NCBI GenBank assembly: GCA_038247945.1
Contig: JBBRUI010000002.1
Coordinates: 1-55,647, forward strand
Source of the DNA: Bacteroidota bacterium
GTDB lineage: Bacteria > Bacteroidota > Ignavibacteria > UBA10030 > UBA6906
Direction: 5' to 3'
Length of the DNA: 55,647 nt
Part shown: piece by piece, positions 1,055-55,647 of the stretch
How the letters are laid out: each line of letters opens with the position of its first letter
Numbering within the stretch: the stretch's first letter is position 1
Notes under the pieces: generated by a model
Database searches by the model: none
What the model was told of the DNA's origin: nothing
The model's input: the letters and a program-made list of their open reading frames with translations, nothing else
Translations under genes and position numbers: made by a program

Positions 1055-1824
1055 CGCGTTTCCACATTTGGTGCCTTCTTGCCTGTTTCCTGAGTTCCTG
1101 TGCACCCCGCCGTACTGAAATTCTTTTGAACACACGGGAGACTCCTCCCGAAGCATTGATGAGCGCCGTTGAAGAACAGCGTTCAAAAATTGTTTCCCTC
1201 ACAGGCAGCGGCGTTCTCTCGTTTGACAGTCCCGAACTTTCCGGCACCGCGTCGTTTGAATCGACGATGAAGAAACCGGACTCGCTTCTCGTTACGCTGG
1301 AAGGCCCGTTCGGTATCGACGTCGGCACTTTTTTTCTGTCGCGAGATAAATATTTGCTCTACAACAGTCTGCAGAACACCGTCACGACCGGTACTCCGGG
1401 CGGCGTGTATATTCGCTCGGTTATTCCGTTCGATCTGACGTACGAGCAGATCCTGGATGCGTTCGCCGGGGTGTTCAATCTTCCTGTGTCCGAAAAGGAT
1501 TTGCGAAACTATGTAATAGAGGAAGATCAGTTTTTTCTTGTCTATGCATGCGGTTCGGATACGTGCAAGTATTGGGTCGACCCGCGCTACTTGCTGGTCT
1601 CACGTTGCCAGATCATCAACCGAAACAATGAAGTGGTAATGGAAGGGAAGGCTTCTTCTTTTACAGAACAGAATGGCATCGTGGCGGCACGACGAATGTC
1701 GCTCCGGTTTCCCCGCGACGAACGCGAGCTTTCCGTTGCATACAGCTCGTTGCAGTTGAACCCGACGGAAACAAATTTCCGATTTACAGTTCCATCCGGA
1801 GCCCGGAAGATTCTCAAACCCTGA
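1051..1824 (+). CDS. DUF4292-like (LolB-fold) outer-membrane lipoprotein
   Basis: I place the start at the ATG at 1051, not the ORF-track start at 979. This gives MTRFHIWCLLACFLSSC, a signal peptide with a lipobox Cys. The block VSLTGSGVLSFDSPELSGTASFESTMKKPDSLLVTLEGPFGIDVG resembles DUF4292. TPR / DUF4292 / M23 is the usual Bacteroidota gene order. Confidence 0.6.
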   Translation: MTRFHIWCLLACFLSSCAPRRTEILLNTRETPPEALMSAVEEQRSKIVSLTGSGVLSFDSPELSGTASFESTMKKPDSLLVTLEGPFGIDVGTFFLSRDKYLLYNSLQNTVTTGTPGGVYIRSVIPFDLTYEQILDAFAGVFNLPVSEKDLRNYVIEEDQFFLVYACGSDTCKYWVDPRYLLVSRCQIINRNNEVVMEGKASSFTEQNGIVAARRMSLRFPRDERELSVAYSSLQLNPTETNFRFTVPSGARKILKP

Positions 1825-1825
1825 T

Positions 1826-3025
1826 ATGAGACGAACACACTTTTACACGTTTGTCATTCTCCTCGTTGCGCTTCCGCTCGTCGCAGGGCCGGTTGACCAG
1901 GACGAACTCCGGAAACGCCAGACTGAACTCCAGAATATCCGGAAGCAAATTAAGGAGTACGAGCAGAAGATCAAGAAGCAGCAGACGAAAGAGAAGGCAA
2001 CGCTTGAACTTCTGGATTCCTATGACCGCAAAGGGACGTTGGTCCGCAAGCTCATCAGCAAACTGCGGGCTCAAGAGTCGGAACTTATCGTAACAACGGA
2101 CCGGACGCGCTTTGACCTGCAATCACTCGACGGACAATTGAAATATCTGAAGCATCATTACGCCAGCTATGTAAAGTCCGTGTACAAGTCCGGACGGGTT
2201 CACGACATCGAGCTCTTACTCTCCGCGCAATCCATCAATCAATTCTATATTCGTTCATATTACCTGCGTCGTTTCACTGATCAGCGCAGGCGCGATGCAG
2301 ACAAGATCGATACGAAGAAAGATGAAGTCGAGCAGGTGCAGTATCAGTTGCAGACACAGCTTGCGGAAGAACGGCGTTTGATCGCGGAAAAAGGAGCTGA
2401 GGAAGACAGGCTTGCAGCGCTGGCAGCAGCGCGGAAACGAGCTTTAACCGATATCAGAAAAGATAAGACGTCGATGCAGCGCGAGATTGATCGCCAGACA
2501 AAAGCTGCCAAAGAACTCGAGAACGTCATTGCCAATTTGATTGATGTCGACCGGCTGAAGAAAGAGAAACGCGACTCGGATGTGAAGGAAGGAAAACTGC
2601 CGCAGCCTCCGCCGATGACGGGCAACTTTGCATCGAAGCGCGGCAAACTTCGCTGGCCTGTAAGTGAAGGCACCGTTGTCGCGAAGTTTGGCAACCAGGT
2701 TCACCCGCGCCTTAAAACAATCACCACAAATACCGGCATCGATATTCAGGTGAAGCCGGGGTCACCGGTCAGCAGCGTGGCAGAAGGCGAAGTCTCGACA
2801 ATTCTCTGGTATCCATCGTACGGCAATCTTCTCATCATCAACCACTACAGCGGTTATCGCACAGTGTACACGCATCTTGCCGACATCTCGGTGACGGAGG
2901 GGCAGAAGTTGAAGGAAGGCGAACGCATCGGGACAAGCGGTGAAGCAATTGACGGCCCGCGTTTGCATTTTGAAGTCTGGAAAGAACGCGAGAAACAAAA
3001 CCCTGAACTCTGGCTCGGCAGATGA
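1826..3025 (+). CDS. M23 family metallopeptidase with N-terminal coiled coil (EnvC-like murein hydrolase activator)
   Basis: Signal peptide, a long charged coiled-coil region, and a C-terminal LytM/M23 core (GIDIQVKPGSPVSSVAEGEV...YGNLLIINHYSGYRTVYTHL...GPRLHFEVW). Confidence 0.85.
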   Translation: MRRTHFYTFVILLVALPLVAGPVDQDELRKRQTELQNIRKQIKEYEQKIKKQQTKEKATLELLDSYDRKGTLVRKLISKLRAQESELIVTTDRTRFDLQSLDGQLKYLKHHYASYVKSVYKSGRVHDIELLLSAQSINQFYIRSYYLRRFTDQRRRDADKIDTKKDEVEQVQYQLQTQLAEERRLIAEKGAEEDRLAALAAARKRALTDIRKDKTSMQREIDRQTKAAKELENVIANLIDVDRLKKEKRDSDVKEGKLPQPPPMTGNFASKRGKLRWPVSEGTVVAKFGNQVHPRLKTITTNTGIDIQVKPGSPVSSVAEGEVSTILWYPSYGNLLIINHYSGYRTVYTHLADISVTEGQKLKEGERIGTSGEAIDGPRLHFEVWKEREKQNPELWLGR

Positions 3026-5655
3026 AAAAATACATTGTCCCCATCGTTATTGCTTTTCTCTCGTTCCTCATCGCATTACTGCTCAGTTCTCCGCTGTCGC
3101 CTCTTGAAGATCAACTCACGGCGTTGAAGTATCGCGTTCGCGGCGACGAGAAGGCAGACTCCAATATCGTGCTCATCTATATCGACTCAGAAGCGATCAA
3201 AGATCTTCAGTGGCCTGTCCGTCGCAATTATTACGCGCTCATGATAAATGCCATCACTGATTTGAAAGTACGCGCCATCGGGATTGATGTGTTCTTTGAA
3301 AATCCAAATAACGAGTATCCTGAATACGATCAGCTCCTTGAACATGTTATCGCCCGCGCGAAGAATGTTGTGCTTAGCGCGTATTTTGATAAACTGATTC
3401 TTGGGGGATGGAAGCTTGCGCGCGTTGAAGGAGGTGACACCCTGTACGATGCGTTCGATTATCCGCAGGTTTCCGATGTGTTCCGTTTGGGCGACGGACT
3501 GCATCTTCCGCTGCCGGCTCTGCTTAAGAGCGCAGCAGGGGTGGGACATGTGAACGTGGAAGAAGACCGGACGCTATCGCTGTTCATCGGAAGCGATAAA
3601 CTCATCGTCCCGTCATTCGGAACCGAAGTGTTGCGCGTTGCAAGCGGCGCGAAACGTGAGAACCTTCGCTACGATCACGAAACGCTTGCGTTGCGAAAAG
3701 AGGGAAAACTACTCGAGATTTCCGCGCCTGAGGGAAGAGTTGATTTGAATTTTCCCGGCCGCATTACTTCATTCACCACATATCCTTTTCTCGAAGTACT
3801 GAAATCCTACGATGCGCTGCGTGCCGGGCGTACGGCCGGGATCCAGGTTCAAAATCTGGAAAATAAAATCGTCCTGCTCGGAGTGATCGCCGAAGGAATA
3901 AGCAAGACGTGGACAACGCCGGTCGATCCGCGGTTTCCTTCGTTGGGGCTTCATGCAGTTTTTCTTGATAACGCGTTGCGTTCGGGTTTTCTCCGCACTG
4001 CGCCGGGCTGGATTATCTATTCGACCGCTCTTCTGTTTGGATTTTGCTGTGCGTGGTTTGTTCTTCTGCGAGGCTCGAAGCCGGCATGGCCCGTTCCCGT
4101 TCTTGTTTTCGTGACGATTCTGATAATTTCATTCCTCTCCTTTACCGTCTCTGCACTGCTGATACCGCTGTCTCCGTTTATTATTGTTGGATTGATAGCA
4201 TCGACTTCGTCACTCTTTTATAAGCACCGCTTTTTACGTGAACAGCTCCAATCCGCACAATCTGAAAAAGAAAAAATAACGATGGAGTTGCGGGATAAGG
4301 AAGCAAAAGTCGCCATGCTGGAGCGCGAACTGATCTCGATCGAATCAAAGAAATCGGAAGACCGGACGAACGAGCTTCTGGAAGACATTCGGAAATACAA
4401 GGCTGAGATTCACGCGCTGAATGCCCGGAAGGACGACATGGAGGAAGCGCTTGTTGCCGATGCGGGCGCAATTTCCACCATGAAGAACTTCGAAGGTATA
4501 ATTTACGAATCCGGCGGTCCGATGCAATCCGTTGTGGATTTCATTGCGAAGATTGCGCAAAGCGAGGCATCGGTGCTGATACTTGGCGAAAGCGGAACCG
4601 GAAAAGAGATGATCGCCCGGTCGATTCACAAGCTCAGCACCCGCGCAGAGAAAACATTTGTTGCGGTGAATTGCGGCGCGCTCTCGGAGGGTCTGCTCGA
4701 AAGCGAATTATTCGGTCACGAGAAAGGCGCGTTCACCGGCGCAGTGAAAGACAAGCTGGGACGGTTTGAACTTGCCGACAGCGGATCCATCTTTCTTGAT
4801 GAGATAGGCGAGGTGAATGAAGGTTTCCAGTTAAAACTGCTGCGCGTGTTACAGGAGGGTGAATTTGAACGGGTCGGCGGCACGAAAACAATCAAAGTCA
4901 ACGTGCGGGTTATTGCAGCGACCAATAAAGATCTGAAACAACTTGTGAATGAGAAGAAGTTCAGGGAGGATGTCTATTATAGATTGAATGTCCTCTCAAT
5001 CAAGCTGCCGTCGTTAAGCGAACGCCCGGGAGATATTCCCTTGCTGATAAATTATTTTCTCAAACGGGAAGGCAGCGAGACAAAAGTTTCCAGAAATGTT
5101 TTGGATATGCTTCAACATTATTCATGGCGCGGAAACATCCGCGAGCTGGAAAGCGTGATTACGCGGGCTGTGTTGCTCGCCAAAGCCGACAAGCGCTCCA
5201 TGATCACGATGAAGGACTTATCCGATGAAATTATCTCCGCAGCAAACAGTTCGATAGCAATCGAAGATCAGATTCTTGAATCCTTACGTGAGAAAGGATT
5301 TTCACGCAGCGCCATTTCAGAAACTGCGGCGGAATTGGGAAACCTGAACCGCGGCACCATTGCGGAATATTTGCGGGGCCAATGCCTGAAAGCGTTCGTT
5401 GAACATACGTATGATCTTGAAACGACAGTCCGTTACATCTCCCTCTCATCCGACAAGGCCGTGAACGACCGTGTCCGGAAGAAAATGATGGAATATCTCA
5501 CCAACCTGGCTGAGGCCGTTGATGTCTCCAAGTCATGGGAAGAAATGAAGCCTGCGCTTCGGTCGAAGATGAAGAACCTTCCGCAAAAATATCATCCGTA
5601 CCTTGAACAGGTGTCGGAGGCATACTTCCGTGGTGTCTGGAAGCCGGAGGGATAG
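3022..5655 (+). CDS. Membrane-bound CHASE2 sensor fused to a sigma-54-dependent AAA+ transcriptional activator (EBP)
   Basis: N-terminal TM helix plus a CHASE2-like block (IVLIYIDSEAIKDLQWPVRRNYYALMINAITDLKVRAIGIDVFFENP), then three TM helices and a coiled coil. The sigma-54 interaction domain follows (VLILGESGTGKEMIARSIH, the signature ESELFGHEKGAFTGA, RVIAATN, RGNIRELES), then a Fis-like HTH (ISETAAELGNLNRGTIAEYL). The start overlaps the upstream stop (ATGA at 3022). Confidence 0.85.
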   Translation: MKKYIVPIVIAFLSFLIALLLSSPLSPLEDQLTALKYRVRGDEKADSNIVLIYIDSEAIKDLQWPVRRNYYALMINAITDLKVRAIGIDVFFENPNNEYPEYDQLLEHVIARAKNVVLSAYFDKLILGGWKLARVEGGDTLYDAFDYPQVSDVFRLGDGLHLPLPALLKSAAGVGHVNVEEDRTLSLFIGSDKLIVPSFGTEVLRVASGAKRENLRYDHETLALRKEGKLLEISAPEGRVDLNFPGRITSFTTYPFLEVLKSYDALRAGRTAGIQVQNLENKIVLLGVIAEGISKTWTTPVDPRFPSLGLHAVFLDNALRSGFLRTAPGWIIYSTALLFGFCCAWFVLLRGSKPAWPVPVLVFVTILIISFLSFTVSALLIPLSPFIIVGLIASTSSLFYKHRFLREQLQSAQSEKEKITMELRDKEAKVAMLERELISIESKKSEDRTNELLEDIRKYKAEIHALNARKDDMEEALVADAGAISTMKNFEGIIYESGGPMQSVVDFIAKIAQSEASVLILGESGTGKEMIARSIHKLSTRAEKTFVAVNCGALSEGLLESELFGHEKGAFTGAVKDKLGRFELADSGSIFLDEIGEVNEGFQLKLLRVLQEGEFERVGGTKTIKVNVRVIAATNKDLKQLVNEKKFREDVYYRLNVLSIKLPSLSERPGDIPLLINYFLKREGSETKVSRNVLDMLQHYSWRGNIRELESVITRAVLLAKADKRSMITMKDLSDEIISAANSSIAIEDQILESLREKGFSRSAISETAAELGNLNRGTIAEYLRGQCLKAFVEHTYDLETTVRYISLSSDKAVNDRVRKKMMEYLTNLAEAVDVSKSWEEMKPALRSKMKNLPQKYHPYLEQVSEAYFRGVWKPEG

Positions 5656-5907: not shown

Positions 5908-6885
5908 ATGAAAAAATCTCTTGCAATGCTCTGGACGATCGCGGCGCTCGTGGGAACGCTGCTCGTCGGCTGTACCAAGAACACCAATGGTCCGGAAGAT
6001 GAAACTGCACCGGCGGGCGTCACCGATGAACAAAGCGCAATGAAGGTCGCTGCGGAAAACGACGAGTTCGTTAAGAACGATGAGCTTTCGTTTGCCGACC
6101 AGGAAATTACAGCGACGGATTATATCTATCTCTCCGGTCGTATCGAAGCATCGATCACTCCTATTCGATGGGGGCGCTTCATCAACAGCGTTACGCGAAC
6201 AGTGACAACAACCATTCAACCGGGTGATACAATTGCCATAGCACGTGTTCACAAGGCGATCAACGGGACATTAAAGATCAGAGCGATTCGCGGCATTGAT
6301 ACAGTTCTTGTTGAAAAGCAATTCGCAGATCAATCGGACAGGAATGTAATATTCCGACGCGTCGACCGCAGTCCACGCTACTGGAGAAACTGGATTCCGG
6401 TTGCGACCTCTCTTGTCGACGGCGGCACGGTGAATGGTCAAATCGATATCACAGCGCTGACAGTAATCTCCGGCACCGACATCATCACGGTGACAGACCC
6501 TCTGAACTTCTATCTCCGCTATCGCTGGTTAAAGGCATTGCATGGGAACAAAGATCTTTATCATCGCAACCGCGACATGATGGAATTCACCGGCGGCGGA
6601 TCCATGACGGTTCGCGTAACCCTGCAGAGCTCTTCGCCTGATACAGATATCGTTGCACTGCGCCATGGTTTCAACGCGCAATATAAGAACCGCGCACGGA
6701 TGTTGTTGGTCAGCCAGACTCCGAACGGCGGAGGATTCCTGAAGGTATACGAGAAAACATTCGTCGTGCAAAATCGCCCCGGACAATTCCACGCAGCAGT
6801 GGAAGCAATGACCAAAGCGACATTGTATGACGATACCGCGGCGTACAACGTGAGCTGGTGGGGAGTTCCATACCGGGTATTCTGA
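5908..6885 (+). CDS. Hypothetical lipoprotein
   Basis: Strong RBS (AAGGAGGAAGCC before the ATG). Signal peptide with lipobox (LVGTLLVGC). No recognisable catalytic motif. An intrinsic terminator follows. Confidence 0.7.
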   Translation: MKKSLAMLWTIAALVGTLLVGCTKNTNGPEDETAPAGVTDEQSAMKVAAENDEFVKNDELSFADQEITATDYIYLSGRIEASITPIRWGRFINSVTRTVTTTIQPGDTIAIARVHKAINGTLKIRAIRGIDTVLVEKQFADQSDRNVIFRRVDRSPRYWRNWIPVATSLVDGGTVNGQIDITALTVISGTDIITVTDPLNFYLRYRWLKALHGNKDLYHRNRDMMEFTGGGSMTVRVTLQSSSPDTDIVALRHGFNAQYKNRARMLLVSQTPNGGGFLKVYEKTFVVQNRPGQFHAAVEAMTKATLYDDTAAYNVSWWGVPYRVF

Positions 6886-39816: not shown

Positions 39817-40227
39817 TTATGCTGCTTCAAGTTCGGTTTTTTCTTCTGCGAGTTCGTTTTCCAATGCAGAAATCGTTTTCACGCCTCCGCCAGTATCTTT
39901 CGTATCCGCATTTATTTTAGATGAGTCGGCGAAAGACCATCGTTCGTATGGAGTTACTATCCAAGCATCTCTAACGACAACCGGAGATGGTGTTGGTCCG
40001 GGTATTTCGTTTCCCCTCTCCATTCGTGCGGTGATATATTCGTCAAACAATTCTTGGACGTTAGCTACAGCTTCGGCTTCTGAAGTGCCGTCCGTTTTGC
40101 AGCCACGGAGTTCAAGATACTCCGCAGTCCAGTATTCACTGCCATCAGAATCTTTGACAAGATCTGTGCGTAACGTATAGGGTAAACGTCTATAATCCTG
40201 TAATGTCTTCTTTGTCGTCGTGTCCAT
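39817..40227 (-). CDS. hicB: HicB-family antitoxin-like protein
   Basis: YWTAEYLELRGCKTDGTSEAEAVANVQELFDEYITARMERGNEIPGP matches the HicB/UPF0150 N-terminal fold pattern. I prefer the ATG at 40227 because GGAGGA lies 5 nt upstream; 40239 is the alternative. No obvious RHH/HTH in the C-terminal part. Confidence 0.65.
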   Translation of the reverse strand: MDTTTKKTLQDYRRLPYTLRTDLVKDSDGSEYWTAEYLELRGCKTDGTSEAEAVANVQELFDEYITARMERGNEIPGPTPSPVVVRDAWIVTPYERWSFADSSKINADTKDTGGGVKTISALENELAEEKTELEAA

Positions 40228-40495
40228 CGTGTCCTCCATTACTAGTTGGTGACCGTTTTATCAGGTCGTCTATTAACTTAACCGCCTCACGTGCTACATA
40301 TTCCTTCAGTTTATTGTGCCGAGGAACGCTAATCCATAAATCACTAAATGTTGGGTGCCAATAAATTGCGTGTTTCCCTTGTTTACACTCAAATCCAAAT
40401 CCAATAAGTAGACGTTCAAAATCTTTTTGTCCCCATCCCGATGACGAGCTACGCATTTGTTCGAGTATTTTTTGCGCGGCTCTACCACCATTCAT
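40190..40495 (-). CDS. hicA: HicA/YcfA-family toxin-like protein
   Basis: FERLLIGFGFECKQGKHAIYWHP...WISVPRHNKLKEYVAREAVKLID matches the HicA pattern (GF...G.H......vP.H..l....v..i). It lies toxin-first relative to hicB, as is canonical. It overlaps hicB by about 38 nt, and its ATG overlaps the upstream stop (ATGA). Confidence 0.6.
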   Translation of the reverse strand: MNGGRAAQKILEQMRSSSSGWGQKDFERLLIGFGFECKQGKHAIYWHPTFSDLWISVPRHNKLKEYVAREAVKLIDDLIKRSPTSNGGHDGHDDKEDITGL

Positions 40496-40902
40496 CCCGC
40501 CCCAGCCTCTCTAAGCTGTATAACAGTAAAGGGAATCCTCCCTAAAAATCGTTCGTTGATGAACATAACAAACTCATAGTGACCAGCTTTCATAAACGGG
40601 ATGTCCTGTAGCTTGGTTACCATCCCAGCCCTAACAACAGACTGACTCGCTGGAGAAGGGTTCAACACTATTTTCTGTTCGAATGACGCGAGTTTGGTTG
40701 CCTTGTTGTCGCGTAATTCCATCGACAGAGTATGGTCACCTTTTTCTGCTGCTACACCTTCTAGATCGACAACGATAGTCATGTCCCTGTGAACGCTTGG
40801 GAGTTTTCTAGCGAAAATTATATCGAAAATTCCCATAGCATTCACTTTCCTATTCTCGTCTAATGTTGCAGAATCGGCAAGGAACGCATATCTAACAAAC
40901 AT
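40492..40902 (-). CDS. Unknown 136-aa protein, first gene of the hicAB operon (possibly DUF6941-like; assignment from memory only)
   Basis: It is translationally coupled to hicA. It is predicted beta-rich, with no signal peptide and no catalytic motif recognised. The N-terminal pattern YAFLADSATLDENRKVNAMGIFDIIFARKLPSVH recalls small DUF-type proteins. Confidence 0.55.
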   Translation of the reverse strand: MFVRYAFLADSATLDENRKVNAMGIFDIIFARKLPSVHRDMTIVVDLEGVAAEKGDHTLSMELRDNKATKLASFEQKIVLNPSPASQSVVRAGMVTKLQDIPFMKAGHYEFVMFINERFLGRIPFTVIQLREAGAG

Positions 40903-50093: not shown

Positions 50094-50818
50094 GCGAACA
50101 AACCATAGATCGCTTTGCGACTGCGTCCGAACTTCATCATGCGGCCGCCGTTTCCATCGTCAGGTTTCTGGGAGATGCGGTCAGCCATCGCGGTCGTGCG
50201 ACCCTGTGTCTATCCGGGGGTTCAACTCCGAAAGCAGTGTACGAACTTCTGGCGGGCGAACAATCTGTAGATTGGGCGAAGGTTCATTTTTTTTGGGGAG
50301 ATGAACGGTGCGTTCCGCCAACGCATCCTGAGAGTAATTTCCTGATGGCGTCTGAGGCGTTCCTTCAAAAACTTTCTATCCCCGATGCAAACATCCATCG
50401 CATTGAAGCGGAGCGTCCCCCGGCTGAAGCAGCAGAACGGTACGAGAGTGAGTTAAGAACTTTTTTCGGTTTGATGGAAAACGAAATACCGCGGTTCGAT
50501 GTAACATTGTTGGGATTGGGAGAAGACGGACACACGGCATCACTTTTTCCCGGCACGACAATCCTGAATGAGTCAAAGCGGCTTGTCGCCGAAGTGTATG
50601 TGGAAAAATTCAAAGCGTATCGCATCAGCATAACGTATCCGCTCGTCAACAATTCCAAGGTCATAATGTTTCTCGTTTCAGGTTCGGGCAAAGCAACCAT
50701 CCTGCACGAAATTTTAGAGGGCGAGCCCGGTCGATATCCTGCACAGCAAGTACAACCAACAGACGGAACCGTCTACTGGTTGATCGACGAACACGCAGCA
50801 TACCATCTAACAACATGA
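50090..50818 (+). CDS. pgl: 6-phosphogluconolactonase
   Basis: LSGGSTPKAVYELL, FWGDERCVPP and LLGLGEDGHTASLFPG. The GTG start overlaps the opcA stop (GTGA). Confidence 0.9.
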   Translation: MSEQTIDRFATASELHHAAAVSIVRFLGDAVSHRGRATLCLSGGSTPKAVYELLAGEQSVDWAKVHFFWGDERCVPPTHPESNFLMASEAFLQKLSIPDANIHRIEAERPPAEAAERYESELRTFFGLMENEIPRFDVTLLGLGEDGHTASLFPGTTILNESKRLVAEVYVEKFKAYRISITYPLVNNSKVIMFLVSGSGKATILHEILEGEPGRYPAQQVQPTDGTVYWLIDEHAAYHLTT

Positions 50819-51792
50819 TACTCGCAGGCGACATAGGCGGAACGAAAACCAATCTCGCGTATTTTACTCTGAAGAACGGAAAACTTGTTCCGGAACTTAT
50901 GAAAAGTTATGCAAGCAAGGAGCACGGCTCATTCACCGAGATCATCAATCTGTTCCAGCAGGAATCGCCGCACACAATCGAGCACGCGGCATTCGGGATC
51001 GCGGGACCTGTTGTGAACGGACGAAGCGAAGCGACGAACCTGCCGTGGGTCGTGAACATTCGGGAGGTTGCCCCAAACTTTGGATTGAAAAACGCCGGAC
51101 TCATTAACGACCTTGAAGCGACAGCGTATGGAATACTCCGGTTGGAGGAGAAAGACACGCTTAAACTGAACGCCGGAACGCCGCGGTTGCAGGGAACCAT
51201 TGCGGTAATCGCGGCGGGGACCGGACTTGGAGAGGGCGGGTTGGTGTGGAACGGCTCGCGCTATCAAACGCTTCCTTCTGAAGGCGGGCACACGGATTTT
51301 GCGCCGCGCAATGAACTGGAAATGGAGCTGCTTCGATTTCTGTTGACGAAGTACAAACGCGTAAGCTACGAGCGCGTTGTTTCCGGTATGGGCATCGTGA
51401 ACCTCTATCAATTCTTCAGGACGATGGTGAAGTATACCGAGCCGGCCTGGCTGACGGAACAATTGTCGGGAGATGCCGCCGCCGCGATCTCCCACGCGGC
51501 GATGAATGGAAAAGATGAAGCTTCAGTAAAGACGATGGAATTGTTTGTCTCGTTATACGGCGCCGAAGCGGGGAATCTGGGACTCAAATTATTGTCCACC
51601 GGAGGTTTGTATATTGCCGGTGGTATCGCTCCCAAAATTCTCCCGAAAATTCAGCAGGCAACATTTATGGATTCCCTAACGGACAAGGGACGCTTGTCGC
51701 ACATCTTGAAGAACATGCCCATATCGGTTATACTGAACGACAAGATTGCTCTCTACGGCGCGGCCCACTATGCTTTGATGATGAATGATTAA
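50815..51792 (+). CDS. glk: Glucokinase (Glk family)
   Basis: ILAGDIGGTKTNLA, INDLEATAYG and SEGGHTDFAPRNELE. The start overlaps the pgl stop (ATGA). Confidence 0.88.
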   Translation: MILAGDIGGTKTNLAYFTLKNGKLVPELMKSYASKEHGSFTEIINLFQQESPHTIEHAAFGIAGPVVNGRSEATNLPWVVNIREVAPNFGLKNAGLINDLEATAYGILRLEEKDTLKLNAGTPRLQGTIAVIAAGTGLGEGGLVWNGSRYQTLPSEGGHTDFAPRNELEMELLRFLLTKYKRVSYERVVSGMGIVNLYQFFRTMVKYTEPAWLTEQLSGDAAAAISHAAMNGKDEASVKTMELFVSLYGAEAGNLGLKLLSTGGLYIAGGIAPKILPKIQQATFMDSLTDKGRLSHILKNMPISVILNDKIALYGAAHYALMMND

Positions 51793-52033
51793 CGTGACAT
51801 TGAAATTGTTCGGACCTTTGCGCGATGTGATGCAACGGGATGAATTGCAACTCCAGGTTCCGCCGCCATACAAGGGCGACACCGCATTCGAACTGCTGAC
51901 CCTCAGTAACCCGTTGCTTCTCCGCTGGCGGCCGAGCGTCCGGTTGGCGGTGAACATGGAGTATACATCGTTCGATCACGTGTTGAAGTCCGGCGATGAG
52001 ATTTGTTTTATTCCTCCGGTCAGCGGGGGTTGA
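51785..52033 (+). CDS. moaD: Molybdopterin synthase sulfur-carrier subunit MoaD
   Basis: 82 aa, ubiquitin-like, ending in the diagnostic PPVSGG. It overlaps the glk 3' end by 8 nt. Confidence 0.8.
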   Translation: MINVTLKLFGPLRDVMQRDELQLQVPPPYKGDTAFELLTLSNPLLLRWRPSVRLAVNMEYTSFDHVLKSGDEICFIPPVSGG

Positions 52034-52076
52034 AGTCGCGGGGTGATTCTTTTTTTTTCCGAACCACTGGCTGCGA

Positions 52077-52161
52077 CTGTCATTCCCGAATGCTTCTATC
52101 GGGAATCCAGAGTGGGAAATGCCTTGACTGGATTCCCGCTAACAACGTGCGGGAATGACAG
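52077..52161. repeat. REP-like double-hairpin element inside the moaD-moaE spacer
   Basis: CTGTCATTCCCG-aatgcttctat-CGGGAATCCAG ... CTGGATTCCCG-ctaacaacgtg-CGGGAATGACAG. These are two ATTCCCG/CGGGAAT hairpins, and their outer halves (GTCATTCC/GGAATGAC and GGAATCCAG/CTGGATTCC) also pair with each other. Confidence 0.7.
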
Positions 52162-52214
52162 AAAACAGTGTTTGATTATGCGTGAGGGTTAGTCTATTTT
52201 CAGTCGATTGGTTT

Positions 52215-52655
52215 ATGGTTTCCATCATTCAAACCCCGATACAAGTTTCTCAAATCCTCGCCGGGATTTCATCGCCCATCTCCGGAGGCACCGACGTTTT
52301 CATCGGCACTGTGCGCAATCACTCGCATGGATTGCGGGTTGAATCGCTTGAGTACACAGCATACATCCCGATGGCGGAGAAACTGATGGCGGCAATTGAA
52401 GATGAGATGCGGAAGAAATGGATGCTGCACAACATCGTTCTCGTCCACCGCGTCGGGGTTCTTCACGTGGGGGATGTTGCCGTTGTTACCGCCGTCTCCG
52501 CCTCGCACCGCAATGAAGCATTCGAAGCGTGCCGCTTTGCCATCGACCGCATCAAAGAAGTTGTCCCCATCTGGAAAAAAGAATTCTACGAAGAAGGGAC
52601 CGCGTGGGTGGTTGGCCAGCACGATATCGACCTGGCCGGCGGGATGAAGGAATAG
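52215..52655 (+). CDS. moaE: Molybdopterin synthase catalytic subunit MoaE
   Basis: FIGTVRNHS...LEYTAYIPMAEK...VHRVGVLHVGDVAVVTAVSASHRNEAFEACRFAIDRIKEVVPIWKKE. Start placed at the ATG at 52215. Confidence 0.88.
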   Translation: MVSIIQTPIQVSQILAGISSPISGGTDVFIGTVRNHSHGLRVESLEYTAYIPMAEKLMAAIEDEMRKKWMLHNIVLVHRVGVLHVGDVAVVTAVSASHRNEAFEACRFAIDRIKEVVPIWKKEFYEEGTAWVVGQHDIDLAGGMKE

Positions 52656-52660
52656 TAACG

Positions 52661-53650
52661 ATGAACCGTCTTACCGATTCGTTCGGCCGCACCGCGACCA
52701 ACGTGCGCATCTCCGTTACCGACCGCTGCAATTTCCGCTGCACCTACTGCATGCCCGAAGAAGGGATGCAATGGCTTCACAGGGACCAGCTTCTCACGTT
52801 TGAAGAGATCACGCGCCTCGTCCGCATCTTCGCATCGCTCGGCGTCACGAAAATCCGATTGACGGGGGGCGAGCCGCTGATGCGGAAAGAACTGTGGCGG
52901 CTTGTAAAGATGCTGCGCGGCGTTGAAGGGATTGACGATATCGCAATGACAACGAACGGATTTTTTCTCAAGGAGCAAGCGGGTGAACTGATCGACGCCG
53001 GACTCAACCGGATCAACATCAGCCTCGATTCGCTTGACCCGCGGGTGTTTGCTGAGATGGCGCGCCGCGATTATTTCCGGCAAACATGGGAAGGGATTGA
53101 AGAAGCCGAACGACTCGGCCTGAAGCCGATCAAGCTGAATGTTGTGTTGGTGCGTGGCGTGAACGACGGCGAGATACTGAAGTTTGCCCGGCTTGCGCGC
53201 GAGCGTTCGTTTGTCATCCGCTTCATTGAGTTCATGCCGATAGGAAAAGACGACGGCTGGTCCAATGACAAAGTCGTGACGACGCAGGAAGTGCTGGAAA
53301 AGATCAATGCGTACGCGTCTCTCATTCCCGTACAATCAACAAACGAAAAAGCCCCTGCCGAAAAATACGTCTTCGCCGACGGTAACGGAGAGATCGGATT
53401 TATCAGCTCGGTGAGCCGGCCGTTTTGCGCTGACTGCGACCGTGTTCGTCTTACGAGTGAAGGCAAGTTCCGCACGTGTTTGTTCTCTCTCGTTGAAACC
53501 GATCTACGCGCACTTTTGCGGGGCGATGCCGGCGATACGGAGATCTCCGATGCCCTGATATGTGCGGTATCAAAAAAAGAAGAAGGCCATCTCATTAATC
53601 GTCCCGGGTTCATCCGGCCCGAAAGAACGATGAGCGCGATTGGTGGGTGA
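52661..53650 (+). CDS. moaA: GTP 3',8-cyclase MoaA (radical SAM)
   Basis: LRISVTDRCNFRCTYCMP (the CxxxCxxC cluster), LTGGEPL, and the C-terminal FCADCDRVRLTSEGKFRTCLF. Start placed at the ATG at 52661; the ORF-track start at 52529 overlaps moaE. Confidence 0.93.
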   Translation: MNRLTDSFGRTATNVRISVTDRCNFRCTYCMPEEGMQWLHRDQLLTFEEITRLVRIFASLGVTKIRLTGGEPLMRKELWRLVKMLRGVEGIDDIAMTTNGFFLKEQAGELIDAGLNRINISLDSLDPRVFAEMARRDYFRQTWEGIEEAERLGLKPIKLNVVLVRGVNDGEILKFARLARERSFVIRFIEFMPIGKDDGWSNDKVVTTQEVLEKINAYASLIPVQSTNEKAPAEKYVFADGNGEIGFISSVSRPFCADCDRVRLTSEGKFRTCLFSLVETDLRALLRGDAGDTEISDALICAVSKKEEGHLINRPGFIRPERTMSAIGG

Positions 53651-53716
53651 GCGCGAGAGGATCGCAGAAGAGCAGGGAGGCATCAGAATAGGGCAAACAC
53701 TAAAAAGCTGAAAAAC

Positions 53717-53953
53717 TCAAGCCGCTTCTAATTTCCTGACGTGAAGGATTTCATCATGTTTGAGGGGTTCGATATTCCCTTCATCGACAACAACCAGTGC
53801 AACGGTTTCTCCAGCCGCAGTAAAGAACTCCACTGCATATCCGGTTTGTTGTCCACGTGACAACTTCTCGACAACAGTTCCGATATCACCCTTACGCAGC
53901 CGCTGTTGAGGAATGTCTTTTGTCAACGCAACTTCTTTATAGATCTCTGTCAT
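53717..53953 (-). CDS. DUF4926-family small protein
   Basis: VALTKDIPQQRLRKGDIGTVVEKLSRGQQTGYAVEFFTAAGETVALVVV matches the DUF4926 pattern. The ATG at 53953 overlaps the stop of the upstream DUF6883 reading frame (ATGA). Confidence 0.7.
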   Translation of the reverse strand: MTEIYKEVALTKDIPQQRLRKGDIGTVVEKLSRGQQTGYAVEFFTAAGETVALVVVDEGNIEPLKHDEILHVRKLEAA

Positions 53954-54286
53954 GACAGCGACCTCCATTTTGTGGGTACAAGCGTAATGAACTGTGTTTT
54001 CCCGGTATCGAATCGTTCAATCCAGAATGTTGTCACATCAAGGTTGCCCCTGGCACCTCCCAAAACGCCACGTACGGAATGCACGCGCCCATATTTTGTA
54101 TCTTGAGAAGAGTGTACATCGTTGTGCGAGATAATCTTTCGGATTGCGAATTCCAGCTCTTTTCCGATTCTCGCGGGTAAATCCGATCCTTGCAAGCAAC
54201 TTTGATTTATCATTTCTTTCACGTGGCAACAACAAATAGTCCGTTAGTTTCGATTCAGCAATTATTGAATCTTCAGGCAGCTTCAA
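53950..54286 (-). pseudogene. DUF6883-like gene split by a 1-nt frameshift in an A4 run
   Basis: The N-terminal half (LKLPEDSIIAESKLTDYLLLPRERNDKSKLLARIGFTRENRK) is in the frame of ORF 54038-54397. The C-terminal half (ELEFAIRKIISHNDVHSSQDTKYGRVHSVRGVLGGARGNLDVTTFWIERFDTGKTQFITLVP) is in the frame of ORF 53950-54222. The frames switch at GGAAAAGAG (plus-strand TTTT at 54160-54163). The start is uncertain; TTG at 54286 is one candidate. Confidence 0.6.
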
Positions 54287-54369
54287 ACAGTTTCCCTTGT
54301 TCTTGTTTATCTGTAATAATGTAAGATTCAGCAGCGTAAAAGTACAGTCAGCGGGCAGGGCCGAAGTAA

Positions 54370-54474
54370 AAACGCGTTGCGAAATCAAAAAGAGCACATC
54401 TCATTAACCGTCCAGGTTTCGTCCGGCCTGAAAGGACGATGAACTCGATTGGGGGTAGCGATGCGTTGGTTTGA
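54370..54474 (+). pseudogene. Displaced relic of a moaA 3' end (encodes ...AKSKRAHLINRPGFVRPERTMNSIGGSDALV*)
   Basis: Positions 54397-54456 align without gaps to 53588-53647 (moaA codons HLINRPGFIRPERTMSAIGG). I count 10 mismatches in 60 nt, and 8 of the 10 fall at third codon positions. An in-frame stop at 54367-54369 cuts the relic off from any upstream ORF. Confidence 0.7.
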
Positions 54475-54502
54475 TTTTCTTCTGATGAATATTTCCTGAA
54501 GA

Positions 54503-54529
54503 GTCCGACAGTGTCGGGCTTTTTCTTTG
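54503..54529 (+). terminator. Rho-independent terminator following the moaA relic
   Basis: Stem GTCCGAC / GTCGGGC (one G-U pair), loop AGT, then TTTTTCTTT. Confidence 0.7.
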
Positions 54530-54654
54530 ATGCCAATCTCAATCTTTCTATATTTCCCACCAGATTTTCAGGTCTGTCCGAAGGACTCCTTTGGAGAAGC
54601 CCGGTCTTTGCAATTCATTTTTTATCCCTATCCTAAATGATGGGGTTATCACTC

Positions 54655-55647
54655 ATGCCAACATTCGCTGCCATCGATGTCGGTTCAAACGCCATCCGCC
54701 TCGTCATCGGGACGGTGGATGGAGAACGCAATCTTCACATCGTCGAGAACATTCGCGAGCCTGTTCGTCTGGGCCAGGATGTGTTCACGAAAGGAACGAT
54801 CGCCGAAGAGACAATCGAAAAAGCCGCAGAGGCATTCTCCCGTTTCAAGAGCAAGATCGAAGCGCATGACGCGAAGTGGACGAAGGCCGTTGCAACGAGC
54901 GCTACACGCGAAGCGCAGAACAAAGAGATCTTCATCGACCGCATCGAGCAGGTGAGCGGAATTGAGATCAACGTTATCAGCGGCGAAGAGGAGGCACGCC
55001 TCATCCATCTTGCCGTTTCGTCGAAAATCAATTTGAAGGGCAAGCACGCCATGCTTGTCGATATCGGCGGCGGCAGCGCGGAGATCACGCTCACGTCGGA
55101 CGGACAGATTCTTTCCACCGAAAGCTACAAGATGGGATCTGTCCGCTTGCTGCAAGTGCTCGAAGAAAAAAAGCACGGCGAGAAGCACTTCAACCAGCTT
55201 GTGAATGAGTATGTGGATGCGACGCAAAAGCGGATGAAAAAAGAGTTGGGCAAAGAGAAGATAGATCTCTGCGTCGGCACCGGCGGCAATATTGAATCGC
55301 TCGGAGATTTACGAAAAGAGCTTTTCAATAAAGATAAGAACACGGTCATCACAACTGAAGAGTTGGATATTCTTGTCAAGAAGCTGCAGAGCCTGACGTA
55401 CGAAGAGCGCGTGCAACAGCTTCGCTTGCGTCCTGACAGGGCCGATGTCATCGTCCCCGCGTCGATTGTGTTGCAAAAAATTGTCAAGCAGGCAGGCGTG
55501 AACGAAGTCGAAGTTCCGGGAGTTGGCCTGAAGGACGGCCTCCTTGCGGATATGGTTCAGGAGTTGTACGGCGAGAAAAAAACTTCATCCCGCGACCAGG
55601 TGATGACTTCGGCGCTGCAACTCGGCAGAAAATATATGTTCGACGAA
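54655..55647 (+). CDS. ppx: Exopolyphosphatase / guanosine pentaphosphate phosphohydrolase (Ppx/GppA), 3' partial. Absent from the supplied ORF track because it runs off the window.
   Basis: My translation from the ATG at 54655 is open for 331 codons to the window end. It reads MPTFAAIDVGSNAIRLVIG...VATSATREAQN...ISGEEEARLIHLAV...MLVDIGGGSAEITL...GTGGNIESL...LRPDRADVIVPA, which carries the ASKHA/Ppx-GppA motifs. Confidence 0.9.
   Translation, partial: MPTFAAIDVGSNAIRLVIGTVDGERNLHIVENIREPVRLGQDVFTKGTIAEETIEKAAEAFSRFKSKIEAHDAKWTKAVATSATREAQNKEIFIDRIEQVSGIEINVISGEEEARLIHLAVSSKINLKGKHAMLVDIGGGSAEITLTSDGQILSTESYKMGSVRLLQVLEEKKHGEKHFNQLVNEYVDATQKRMKKELGKEKIDLCVGTGGNIESLGDLRKELFNKDKNTVITTEELDILVKKLQSLTYEERVQQLRLRPDRADVIVPASIVLQKIVKQAGVNEVEVPGVGLKDGLLADMVQELYGEKKTSSRDQVMTSALQLGRKYMFDE

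Follow-up and report, generated by a model that had tools for sequence, protein, structure and literature searches.

How can the end of a housekeeping gene come to be present twice, once in the working gene and once, untranslated, behind a small gene pair of opposite orientation? The question is raised by the moaA locus of an uncultured Ignavibacteria member (contig JBBRUI010000002.1 of assembly GCA_038247945.1), of which a stretch of 55,647 nucleotides, called the window in the following, was analysed. In the window the last codons of moaA, the gene for GTP 3',8-cyclase, recur downstream of a minus-strand cassette of two genes (DUF6883 and DUF4926), just ahead of ppx. A reading of the same DNA that was made from its letters alone, referred to here as the sequence-only reading, had interpreted the arrangement as a scar resembling an attachment (att) site. 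The locus is a real and well-defined insertion scar, fairly ordinary in kind, which recurs at moaA in related bacteria. What held of the earlier interpretation is the insertion with a replacement 3' end that displaced the resident one, the displaced copy (the relic) still standing at the resident distance from ppx, but no evidence was obtained for an att site or an integrase-type mechanism. We tentatively ascribe the scar to a recombination-delivered displacement of the moaA 3' end, a reading in which we place slightly less than even confidence.

Positions 53588-53647 and 54397-54456 align without a gap and agree at 50 of their 60 nucleotides, exactly as had been reported, and no other register gave more than 21 matches. 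Upstream, the similarity reaches 53563 and 54378 across one 6-nt (two-codon) gap, yielding segments of 91 and 83 nt with 78% identity. Formal alignment with blastn showed the similarity to be significant (E = 1e-11 to 1.4e-14 within the window). The pair is the sole direct repeat in the 55.6-kb window other than intragenic protein repeats, and blastn found no further copy of either tail in the window, the scope within which the suggested search for additional copies was carried out. The longest uninterrupted match between the copies measures 11 nt (CATCTCATTAA). Among the ten mismatches of the 60-nt core, seven are at third codon positions (not eight, as counted earlier) and seven are synonymous, as stated before. 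A diversity-generating retroelement was rejected as a source of the differences on the mismatch spectrum, A being present in either copy at only two of the ten mismatched positions. An Rfam scan of 50500-55647 returned sub-threshold chance matches only.

The downstream copy is a dead moaA tail, which is untranslated and decaying and should not be annotated as a gene. An in-frame TAA at 54367 precedes its frame. Its 5' 21 nt are decayed and carry a two-codon deletion, EEG of KEEGH being missing; its 3' 60 nt resemble a functional allele and contain only residues found in functional MoaA proteins. The frame runs on into the extended tail IGGSDALV, with GGT-AGC where GGGTGAGC would be expected; this tail and the stop at 54367 had both been noticed from the letters alone and were verified. 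Since all of the ~160 intact MoaA proteins examined end in IGG followed by the stop, the relic tail is read as one whose stop codon was lost, and the sequence looks like that left by a 1-nt indel.

The surroundings of the relic were compared with the corresponding region of related loci (denoted by L numbers). The strong terminator that had been seen behind the relic was confirmed as a 12-bp stem with a U tract at 54498-54527, which a simple consensus scan missed and folding recovered. The 66-nt spacer behind the intact moaA contains no terminator and no significant structure (fold z -0.28 and -0.10), in keeping with the earlier remark that the intact gene has no terminator of its own, and shows no similarity to the sequence after the relic past about 8 nt. 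The motif CTTTGA..TTCTATATT in front of ppx was also found upstream of ppx in L005, L010, L014, L017, L055, L057 and L086. It is shared by the insert-free relatives whose spacer can hold it; L015, with an 11-nt spacer, does not have it. From the last Gly codon of the relic to the motif there are 68 nt, and from the intact moaA stop to the motif in the insert-free relatives 53-108 nt. Because the relic lies at a distance within the range of the relatives, the relic, the terminator and the ppx promoter are taken as the resident arrangement, and the 809 nt upstream as the insert. Among all loci, the best match of the relic was the moaA tail of L001 (82.5% over 63 nt).

In at least 15 Ignavibacteriota loci (L005, L010, L014, L015, L017, L018, L055, L057, L085, L088, L090-L093 and L095) moaA and ppx are adjacent without the cassette, so that the check for cassette-free relatives proposed with the sequence-only reading turned out positive and the two-copy arrangement is not universal. 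The gene order glk-moaD-moaE-moaA-ppx with a moaA-ppx gap of about 15-234 nt was observed in L005, L010, L014, L015, L017, L018, L055 and L057, as well as in several metagenome loci. The interval holds Oxidored_molyb and nitroreductase genes in L013 and L011, and Oxidored_molyb only in L086. In the closest relative, L001 (MoaA 88%, Ppx 95% identity), it holds a lipoprotein gene, a RayT-type Y1 transposase gene, four ~100-nt repeats and a nitroreductase gene. Among the relatives, the interval was found to contain Oxidored_molyb, nitroreductase, an aspA-like gene, repetitive extragenic palindromic (REP)/RayT sequences or nothing, and is a region of flux. A metagenome scan yielded no relative closer than L001 (best MoaA identity 82%) and hence no exact empty site.

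Some details of these intervals may be recorded. The RayT/IS200-like Y1 transposase gene of L001 (2703-3254) lies in a segment (1156-3434) in which four ~100-nt repeat copies bracket each inserted gene in a REPtron-like manner, and a similar RayT gene is located between palindromic repeats in L009. Directly past the moaA stop of L005 (6991-7030) a frame reads MKLFEGRDKS followed by two stops, similar to the Oxidored_molyb start in L013 (MKLFEGAPKI...); it is likely the relic of a lost gene.

Segmental comparison of moaA with L001 suggests which DNA arrived. Between the window and L001, nucleotide identity is 83.6% over moaA codons 27-205 (third positions 59.8%), 72.3% over codons 206-300 (third positions 43.2%) and 87.8% in ppx (third positions 69.8%). 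The gap of 10.2 points between the two moaA segments exceeds that of every other pair among the 40 closest for moaA, and of 55 pairs compared the window and L001 have the highest moaA/ppx divergence ratio (1.69; mean 1.10, sd 0.11). Over the 3' segment the window is nearest to L002, and L001 is nearest to the L081 group. The discordant stretch covers ~370 nt before the stop and far exceeds the 90-nt repeat. These values suggest that the first two thirds of moaA belong with the relic and ppx to the resident set, and that the imported DNA, ~1.1 kb, would consist of moaA from ~53280 to its stop, the spacer and the cassette. The features of the locus are listed in Table 1. As a separate observation, moaA of L081 and L082 is 84.7% identical over codons 27-205 and 100% identical over codons 206-329, which may be a recombination mosaic or an assembly chimera.

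Table 1. Features of the moaA-ppx region (window coordinates; ".", no strand assigned)
Feature	Positions	Strand	Basis
Intact moaA (GTP 3',8-cyclase, 329 aa), canonical end IGG and stop	52661..53650	+	Pfam Radical_SAM 7.9e-38, Mob_synth_C 1.8e-37; 88% aa identity to L001
3' third of moaA, discordant with the 5' part, probably imported; left limit about +/-50 nt	53280..53650	+	Segmental identity vs L001
Repeat copy 1, working tail: final 29 moaA codons, stop and 3 nt	53563..53653	+	Alignment, blastn
Spacer, 66 nt, between the convergent moaA and DUF4926 genes	53651..53716	.	Fold z -0.28, -0.10; alignment
DUF4926 gene, 83-aa open reading frame (ORF)	53717..53968	-	Pfam PF16277 E 1.9e-17; 83% aa identity to P0002 in L161; GC 46.8%
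DUF6883 gene, TTG start near 54285, frameshifted, probably a pseudogene	53950..54285	-	Homologue comparison with L161
Upstream (promoter-side) region of the cassette, conserved with L161	54286..54347	-	blastn, alignment
Junction segment, possible 16-19-nt stub like the start of the L161 Oxidored_molyb fragment (tentative), then in-frame TAA 54367	54348..54369	.	11/16 by eye, right-justified on GAAG, not formally significant
Relic moaA tail, KRVAKSKRAHLINRPGFVRPERTMNSIGGSDALV and stop	54370..54474	+	Homologous part 54378-54460; alignment
Intrinsic terminator (stem of 12 bp, loop GUG, U tract), probably that of the resident moaA	54498..54527	+	Centroid -15.1 kcal/mol
ppx promoter-like motif CTTTGA-N19-TTCTATATT	54525..54555	+	Motif in relatives; promoter-like match 54527-54554; 35 nt at 83% identity with L001
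ppx (Ppx/GppA phosphatase), continues past the window end	54655..55647	+	Pfam 4e-50; 95% aa identity to L001

Among 5.8 billion proteins, the DUF4926 protein has its sole close homologue in L161, where the order, in window orientation, is the moaA end, Oxidored_molyb, 98 nt, the cassette and ppx. L161 1251-1879 matches window 54347-53721 with 77.5% nucleotide identity (blastn; ppx 75.9%), which defines 53721-54347 as the unit common to both. L161 has no moaA relic. Its cassette is abutted on the promoter side by 97 nt duplicated from the interior of Oxidored_molyb, which have 95% identity with the intact gene of that contig and differ from it at all codon positions; the left copy continues into the rest of the host gene, the right copy does not. 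Taking the two loci together, the cassette is accompanied by a duplicated piece of whichever gene is upstream, and the process is not specific to moaA. A moaA-specific integrase is therefore hard to reconcile with L161. The association with another gene, together with the ~370 nt of discordant moaA, favours a recombination-delivered cassette over a decayed integrase island; of the origins that the sequence-only reading had offered, the former is the better fit.

The window may itself keep, tentatively, ~16-19 nt beside the cassette that resemble the start of the Oxidored_molyb fragment. At the junction (54348-54378) the cargo showed no homology to moaA. An ATAT(N)TGCG motif, seen where the duplications of moaA and Oxidored_molyb sequence start on their 5' side, proved too weak on register-by-register comparison. 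A terminator-like hairpin on the minus strand (TCGGCCCTGCCCGCTGA plus a T-rich tail, 54348-54364) lies exactly at the promoter-side edge of the cassette, adjoining the relic junction; its fold is not significant (z -0.97).

Under the recombination reading, ~1.1 kb from a related Ignavibacteriota lineage, comprising the last ~370 nt of moaA, the 66-nt spacer and the DUF6883-DUF4926 bicistron, would have entered the chromosome by homologous exchange inside moaA near 53280 at the left end and, at the right end, by a join to resident codon -29 that was non-homologous or relied on microhomology. moaA would then read into the imported tail with its function retained, and the resident last 29 codons would have been shifted, with the terminator and the ppx promoter, 809 nt downstream, where the codons, no longer translated, would decay (stop lost, two codons deleted). 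The cargo, if it acts as a toxin-antitoxin (TA) pair, would oppose its own loss, and the 83%-identical tails would be too short and too diverged for efficient recombinational loss of the cassette. An element-encoded recombinase would not be necessary.

Displacement of 3' ends at type VI secretion system (T6SS) effector, Rhs and contact-dependent inhibition (CDI) loci has been attributed to homology-facilitated illegitimate recombination (PMC5361080; Jackson et al. 2009 cited therein). Of the marks of such recombination, a mosaic, discordant moaA (judged against one close relative, L001) and empty sites with variable content in relatives were found here. The likeness to the Rhs, CDI and T6SS loci consists in incoming DNA that is anchored in the conserved part of a gene and brings a new 3' end with a small linked gene, in an old 3' end that is displaced downstream as an orphan with a conserved stub, and in the lack of a dedicated recombinase. 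In contrast to these loci, moaA is not a polymorphic toxin gene but encodes a radical-SAM housekeeping enzyme, the tail of which has to be preserved; the cargo is a TA-like pair, not an immunity gene, and both tails encode nearly the same peptide, so that nothing is diversified.

A screen of 1.44 Mb of loci, blind to repeats shorter than 45 nt, detected duplicated gene fragments beside small inserts in the window, L028, L107 and L161 only; the duplications measure 91, 90, about 70 and 97 nt. L028 (identical to L109) carries a 90-nt moaA relic with 89% identity and nine of ten differences at third positions, located after a DUF4258/PBECR2-like and DUF2283 gene pair, a cargo unrelated to that of the window. 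In L107 a moaA relic stands behind a 155-nt insert of three hairpins (fold z -5.75). In these moaA-tail duplications, three cases only, the identity blocks are 8-11 nt.

The L107 insert (6399-6553) is bounded by GACCCCC/GGGGGTC, folds with -64.6 kcal/mol and is unrepeated among all loci analysed. Gene-tail duplication as a general trait of the L028 toxin-like module family was considered and rejected, as five contexts of homologues (L162-L166) are without duplicated fragments of flanking genes. Two of them, L163 (1368-1421, 1935-2051, 2999-3108) and L165 (2654-2777, 3906-3977, 4663-4707), contain arrays of small TA-like cassettes (HicAB, DUF4258-like/DUF2283, Fic, AAA_14), each with the same sequence of 35-70 nt, containing a short hairpin, in front of it; the arrays may be integron-like or share a promoter.

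The similar lengths of the four duplications would be expected if the insertion of the cassette had itself duplicated ~90 nt of target, as a very long target-site duplication or a local templated duplication, after which the copies diverged, the working one under purifying selection and the relic neutrally. The L161 pair, 95% identical with differences at all codon positions, is in line with such an in-situ event. The differences between the moaA copies bear on it in two ways: pooled for the window and L028, 16 of 20 are at third positions, which argues against neutral decay (P = 2.5e-5), but against the expectation of 0.65 for duplication in situ the same count gives P = 0.12 and does not formally reject it. 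The earlier statement that the relic derives from a different moaA allele is thus favoured by the third-position excess, without in-situ duplication being formally rejected by that count. In-situ duplication is nevertheless highly unlikely. The right copy in L161 is not continued by the host gene, so it is no simple target-site duplication; the 3' 60 nt of the window relic hold only residues of functional MoaA proteins; and a divergence of 17% acquired in place implies an age at which L001 should share the structure, which it does not have. In addition, no transposition mechanism is known to yield 90-bp target duplications.

Several observations weigh against delivery by recombination. The 5' edges of the relics in the window and L028 are within 2 nt of each other at codon -29, and that in L107, too decayed to be placed precisely, is within a few codons of it; a shared edge is not predicted by a random non-homologous join. 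moaA tails are enriched among the duplications: with the discovery case excluded, 2/159 compare with 0/~1234 other ORFs (P = 0.013, a rough estimate), and a Fisher test with three events (3 with, 156 without, vs 0/1234) gave P = 0.0015. The mosaic signal depends on one close relative, and a change in the lineage of L001 could explain it. Nor is the native tail identifiable by its last 60 nt, in which L001 matches the intact tail at 50 and the relic at 49 positions; this comparison was discarded as having no power, since any two moaA in the group share 38-50/60. Finally, homology-facilitated illegitimate recombination as described normally replaces resident DNA and does not duplicate it. The coincidence at codon -29 is softened by a survivorship window, as repeats well over ~100 nt would be lost by homologous recombination and those shorter than 45 nt would escape the screen.

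The shared edge and the enrichment would be accounted for by site-specific integration. Elements such as e14 and phage 21 at icd, and ICESt1/ICESt3 at fda together with the integrase-less cis-mobilizable elements (CIMEs), are known to integrate at the 3' ends of genes, for which they provide a substitute. By analogy, small elements would use the KEEGHLIN-coding moaA tail as attB and carry a surrogate tail, being mobilised in trans or, CIME-like, decayed, and attL and attR would be represented by the two copies. The architecture matches that of elements integrating at gene 3' ends exactly: the working gene is completed by element-borne sequence, the insert is flanked by a directly repeated tail, and native downstream DNA follows the native tail; with the CIMEs the locus has the missing integrase in common. 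That the window and L028 have the codon of the 5' edge in common despite unrelated cargo, with L107 as a third case, speaks for such a scar, as do the enrichment of moaA among gene-end duplications, the 11-nt longest identity, which resembles a core and would not suffice for RecA exchange had the copies diverged before the event, and the hybrid look of the window relic, with a decayed 5' part and an allele-like 3' part.

The searches for an integrating element argue in the other direction. With XerD and lambda Int seeds, a phmmer search of limited sensitivity detected no tyrosine recombinase in the window, where the earlier remark on the absence of a recombinase is matched to this extent, nor in the 6 kb that follow moaA in 156 loci. 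When gamma-delta resolvase and RayT were included as further seeds and the ORFs of all loci and of the window were searched once more, there was still no tyrosine recombinase; in the window and in the 6-kb stretches the resolvase seed gave no match either. No large occupant of the moaA-tail site was present in the 156 loci. IMG/VR contained no moaA relative and no degenerate moaA-tail pattern, and there is therefore no sign there of a phage-type element with a surrogate tail. Neither an inverted-repeat core nor, with regard to a possible integron gene cassette (CALIN), inverted repeats bounding the insert were found, and a literature query for moaA with attL/attR returned no report of moaA as an attachment site. 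The only recombinase match near any of the cases is a large serine recombinase 3.5 kb beyond the relic of L028/L109, with ordinary-looking genes between; its link to the scar is unproven, and large serine recombinases are not known to yield 90-nt repeats. (The gene, at 12241-13494 of L109, equivalent to 5507-6772 of L028, on the minus strand, encodes Resolvase, Recombinase and Zn_ribbon_recom domains and is followed by a 199-aa ORF, maybe a detached C-terminal part.)

The locus thus differs from the icd and fda elements in having no integrase in cis or nearby and no full-size occupant, in a cargo of just 0.16-0.75 kb, and in the occurrence of the same cargo beside a duplicated fragment of another gene in L161; moreover, the discordant part of moaA is ~370 nt and not 90 nt long. 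Taking both sides into account, a site-specific att scar, the main rival of the recombination reading, is possible but on balance unlikely. A bolder version, in which small modules without a recombinase (TA-like pairs, the hairpin-rich 155-nt element) home repeatedly to the last 29 moaA codons in Ignavibacteriota by means of a surrogate tail and a host-encoded or trans-acting site-specific activity, is distinctly unlikely.

As the source organism is uncultured, the two tails could also be those of two strains, joined chimerically in a metagenome-assembled contig, and mosaic pairs such as L081/L082 could include chimeras. Such an artefact is extremely unlikely: the copies share at most 11 consecutive identical bases, far below assembler k-mer sizes, and both stand on one contig with a coherent gene pair between them; the independent assembly L161 also has the cassette upstream of ppx, and analogous structures are present in other assemblies (L028/L109 and L107).

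The cargo had been described as a minus-strand TA-like pair. The DUF4926 assignment was confirmed by Pfam (E 1.9e-17), but DUF6883 is frameshifted, which had been missed, and gave a Pfam match in its C-terminal part only (E 1e-3, below the gathering score). Alignment to L161 shows the frameshift to be a 1-nt insertion in a run of T around 54160-54163 (+ strand): ORF 54038-54397 shares its frame with the N-terminal part (KLPEDSIIAESKLTDYLL...), ORF 53950-54222 with the C-terminal one. The intact homologue in L161 has 111 aa (Pfam DUF6883 5.1e-14). Judging from these frames, the pair in the window is probably partly decayed, and its DUF6883 should be flagged as frameshifted in annotation. The public DUF4926 gene call is a 78-aa form starting MTEIYKE (53717-53953). 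The two genes overlap by 19 nt in the window (53950-53968) and by 4 nt in L161, and the GC content of the cassette is 42-47%, vs 52-55% in the flanking genes.

Like the genes of type II TA modules, the two are small, co-oriented, overlapping and paired recurrently on plasmids and chromosomes; by this analogy of context the TA label may apply to DUF6883-DUF4926. Bicistrons on cyanobacterial plasmids have the same gene order and overlapping genes; one adjoins parAB on a mobilizable plasmid and one is inside a type I restriction-modification operon, positions that are typical for addiction or defence modules. They differ from the window pair in being only 39-48% identical to it at the amino acid level, and in that the window copy is chromosomal with a frameshifted DUF6883. 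PADLOC, NCBIfam and PDB gave no match for DUF6883 or DUF4926, a word-indexed search gave none for DUF6883, and exact-protein look-ups of the window MoaA and the 83-aa DUF4926 form were negative. Essentially no literature on DUF4926 was found. The family has 688 representative homologues in 1.84 billion proteins, the nearest with 55% identity, and its AlphaFold2 model was poor (pLDDT 54) and unfit for a fold search.

Two further features of the window were noticed. The moaD-moaE spacer measures 148 nt, compared with 3-13 nt in relatives, and contains an 85-nt near-perfect hairpin (52077-52161; DNA fold -30.3 kcal/mol, z -4.9), single-copy in the window, which looks like a palindromic insert of the kind of a miniature inverted-repeat transposable element or a REP sequence. 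A second cluster of small genes on the minus strand (39817-40902) encodes a DUF6941 protein (E 4e-26), a HicA-toxin-like protein (E 3e-6) and a 140-aa ORF that is HicB-like by eye and has no Pfam match; no gene-fragment repeat was seen flanking this cluster.

If modules of this kind did home to the moaA tail, they would represent a new class of miniature mobile cassettes that target gene tails and are recognisable by a flanking repeat of ~90 nt. On the recombination reading, the locus means that a two-gene addiction-type module can enter at the end of a gene of an essential pathway, leaving the gene undisrupted and using no mobility gene, and 3'-end displacement, known at polymorphic toxin loci, would affect a housekeeping gene as well. 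That three lineages have such scars at moaA, starting close to one codon and with unrelated small cargo, may reflect either a hot spot created by a conserved tail beside a variable interval or an unrecognised site-specific system.

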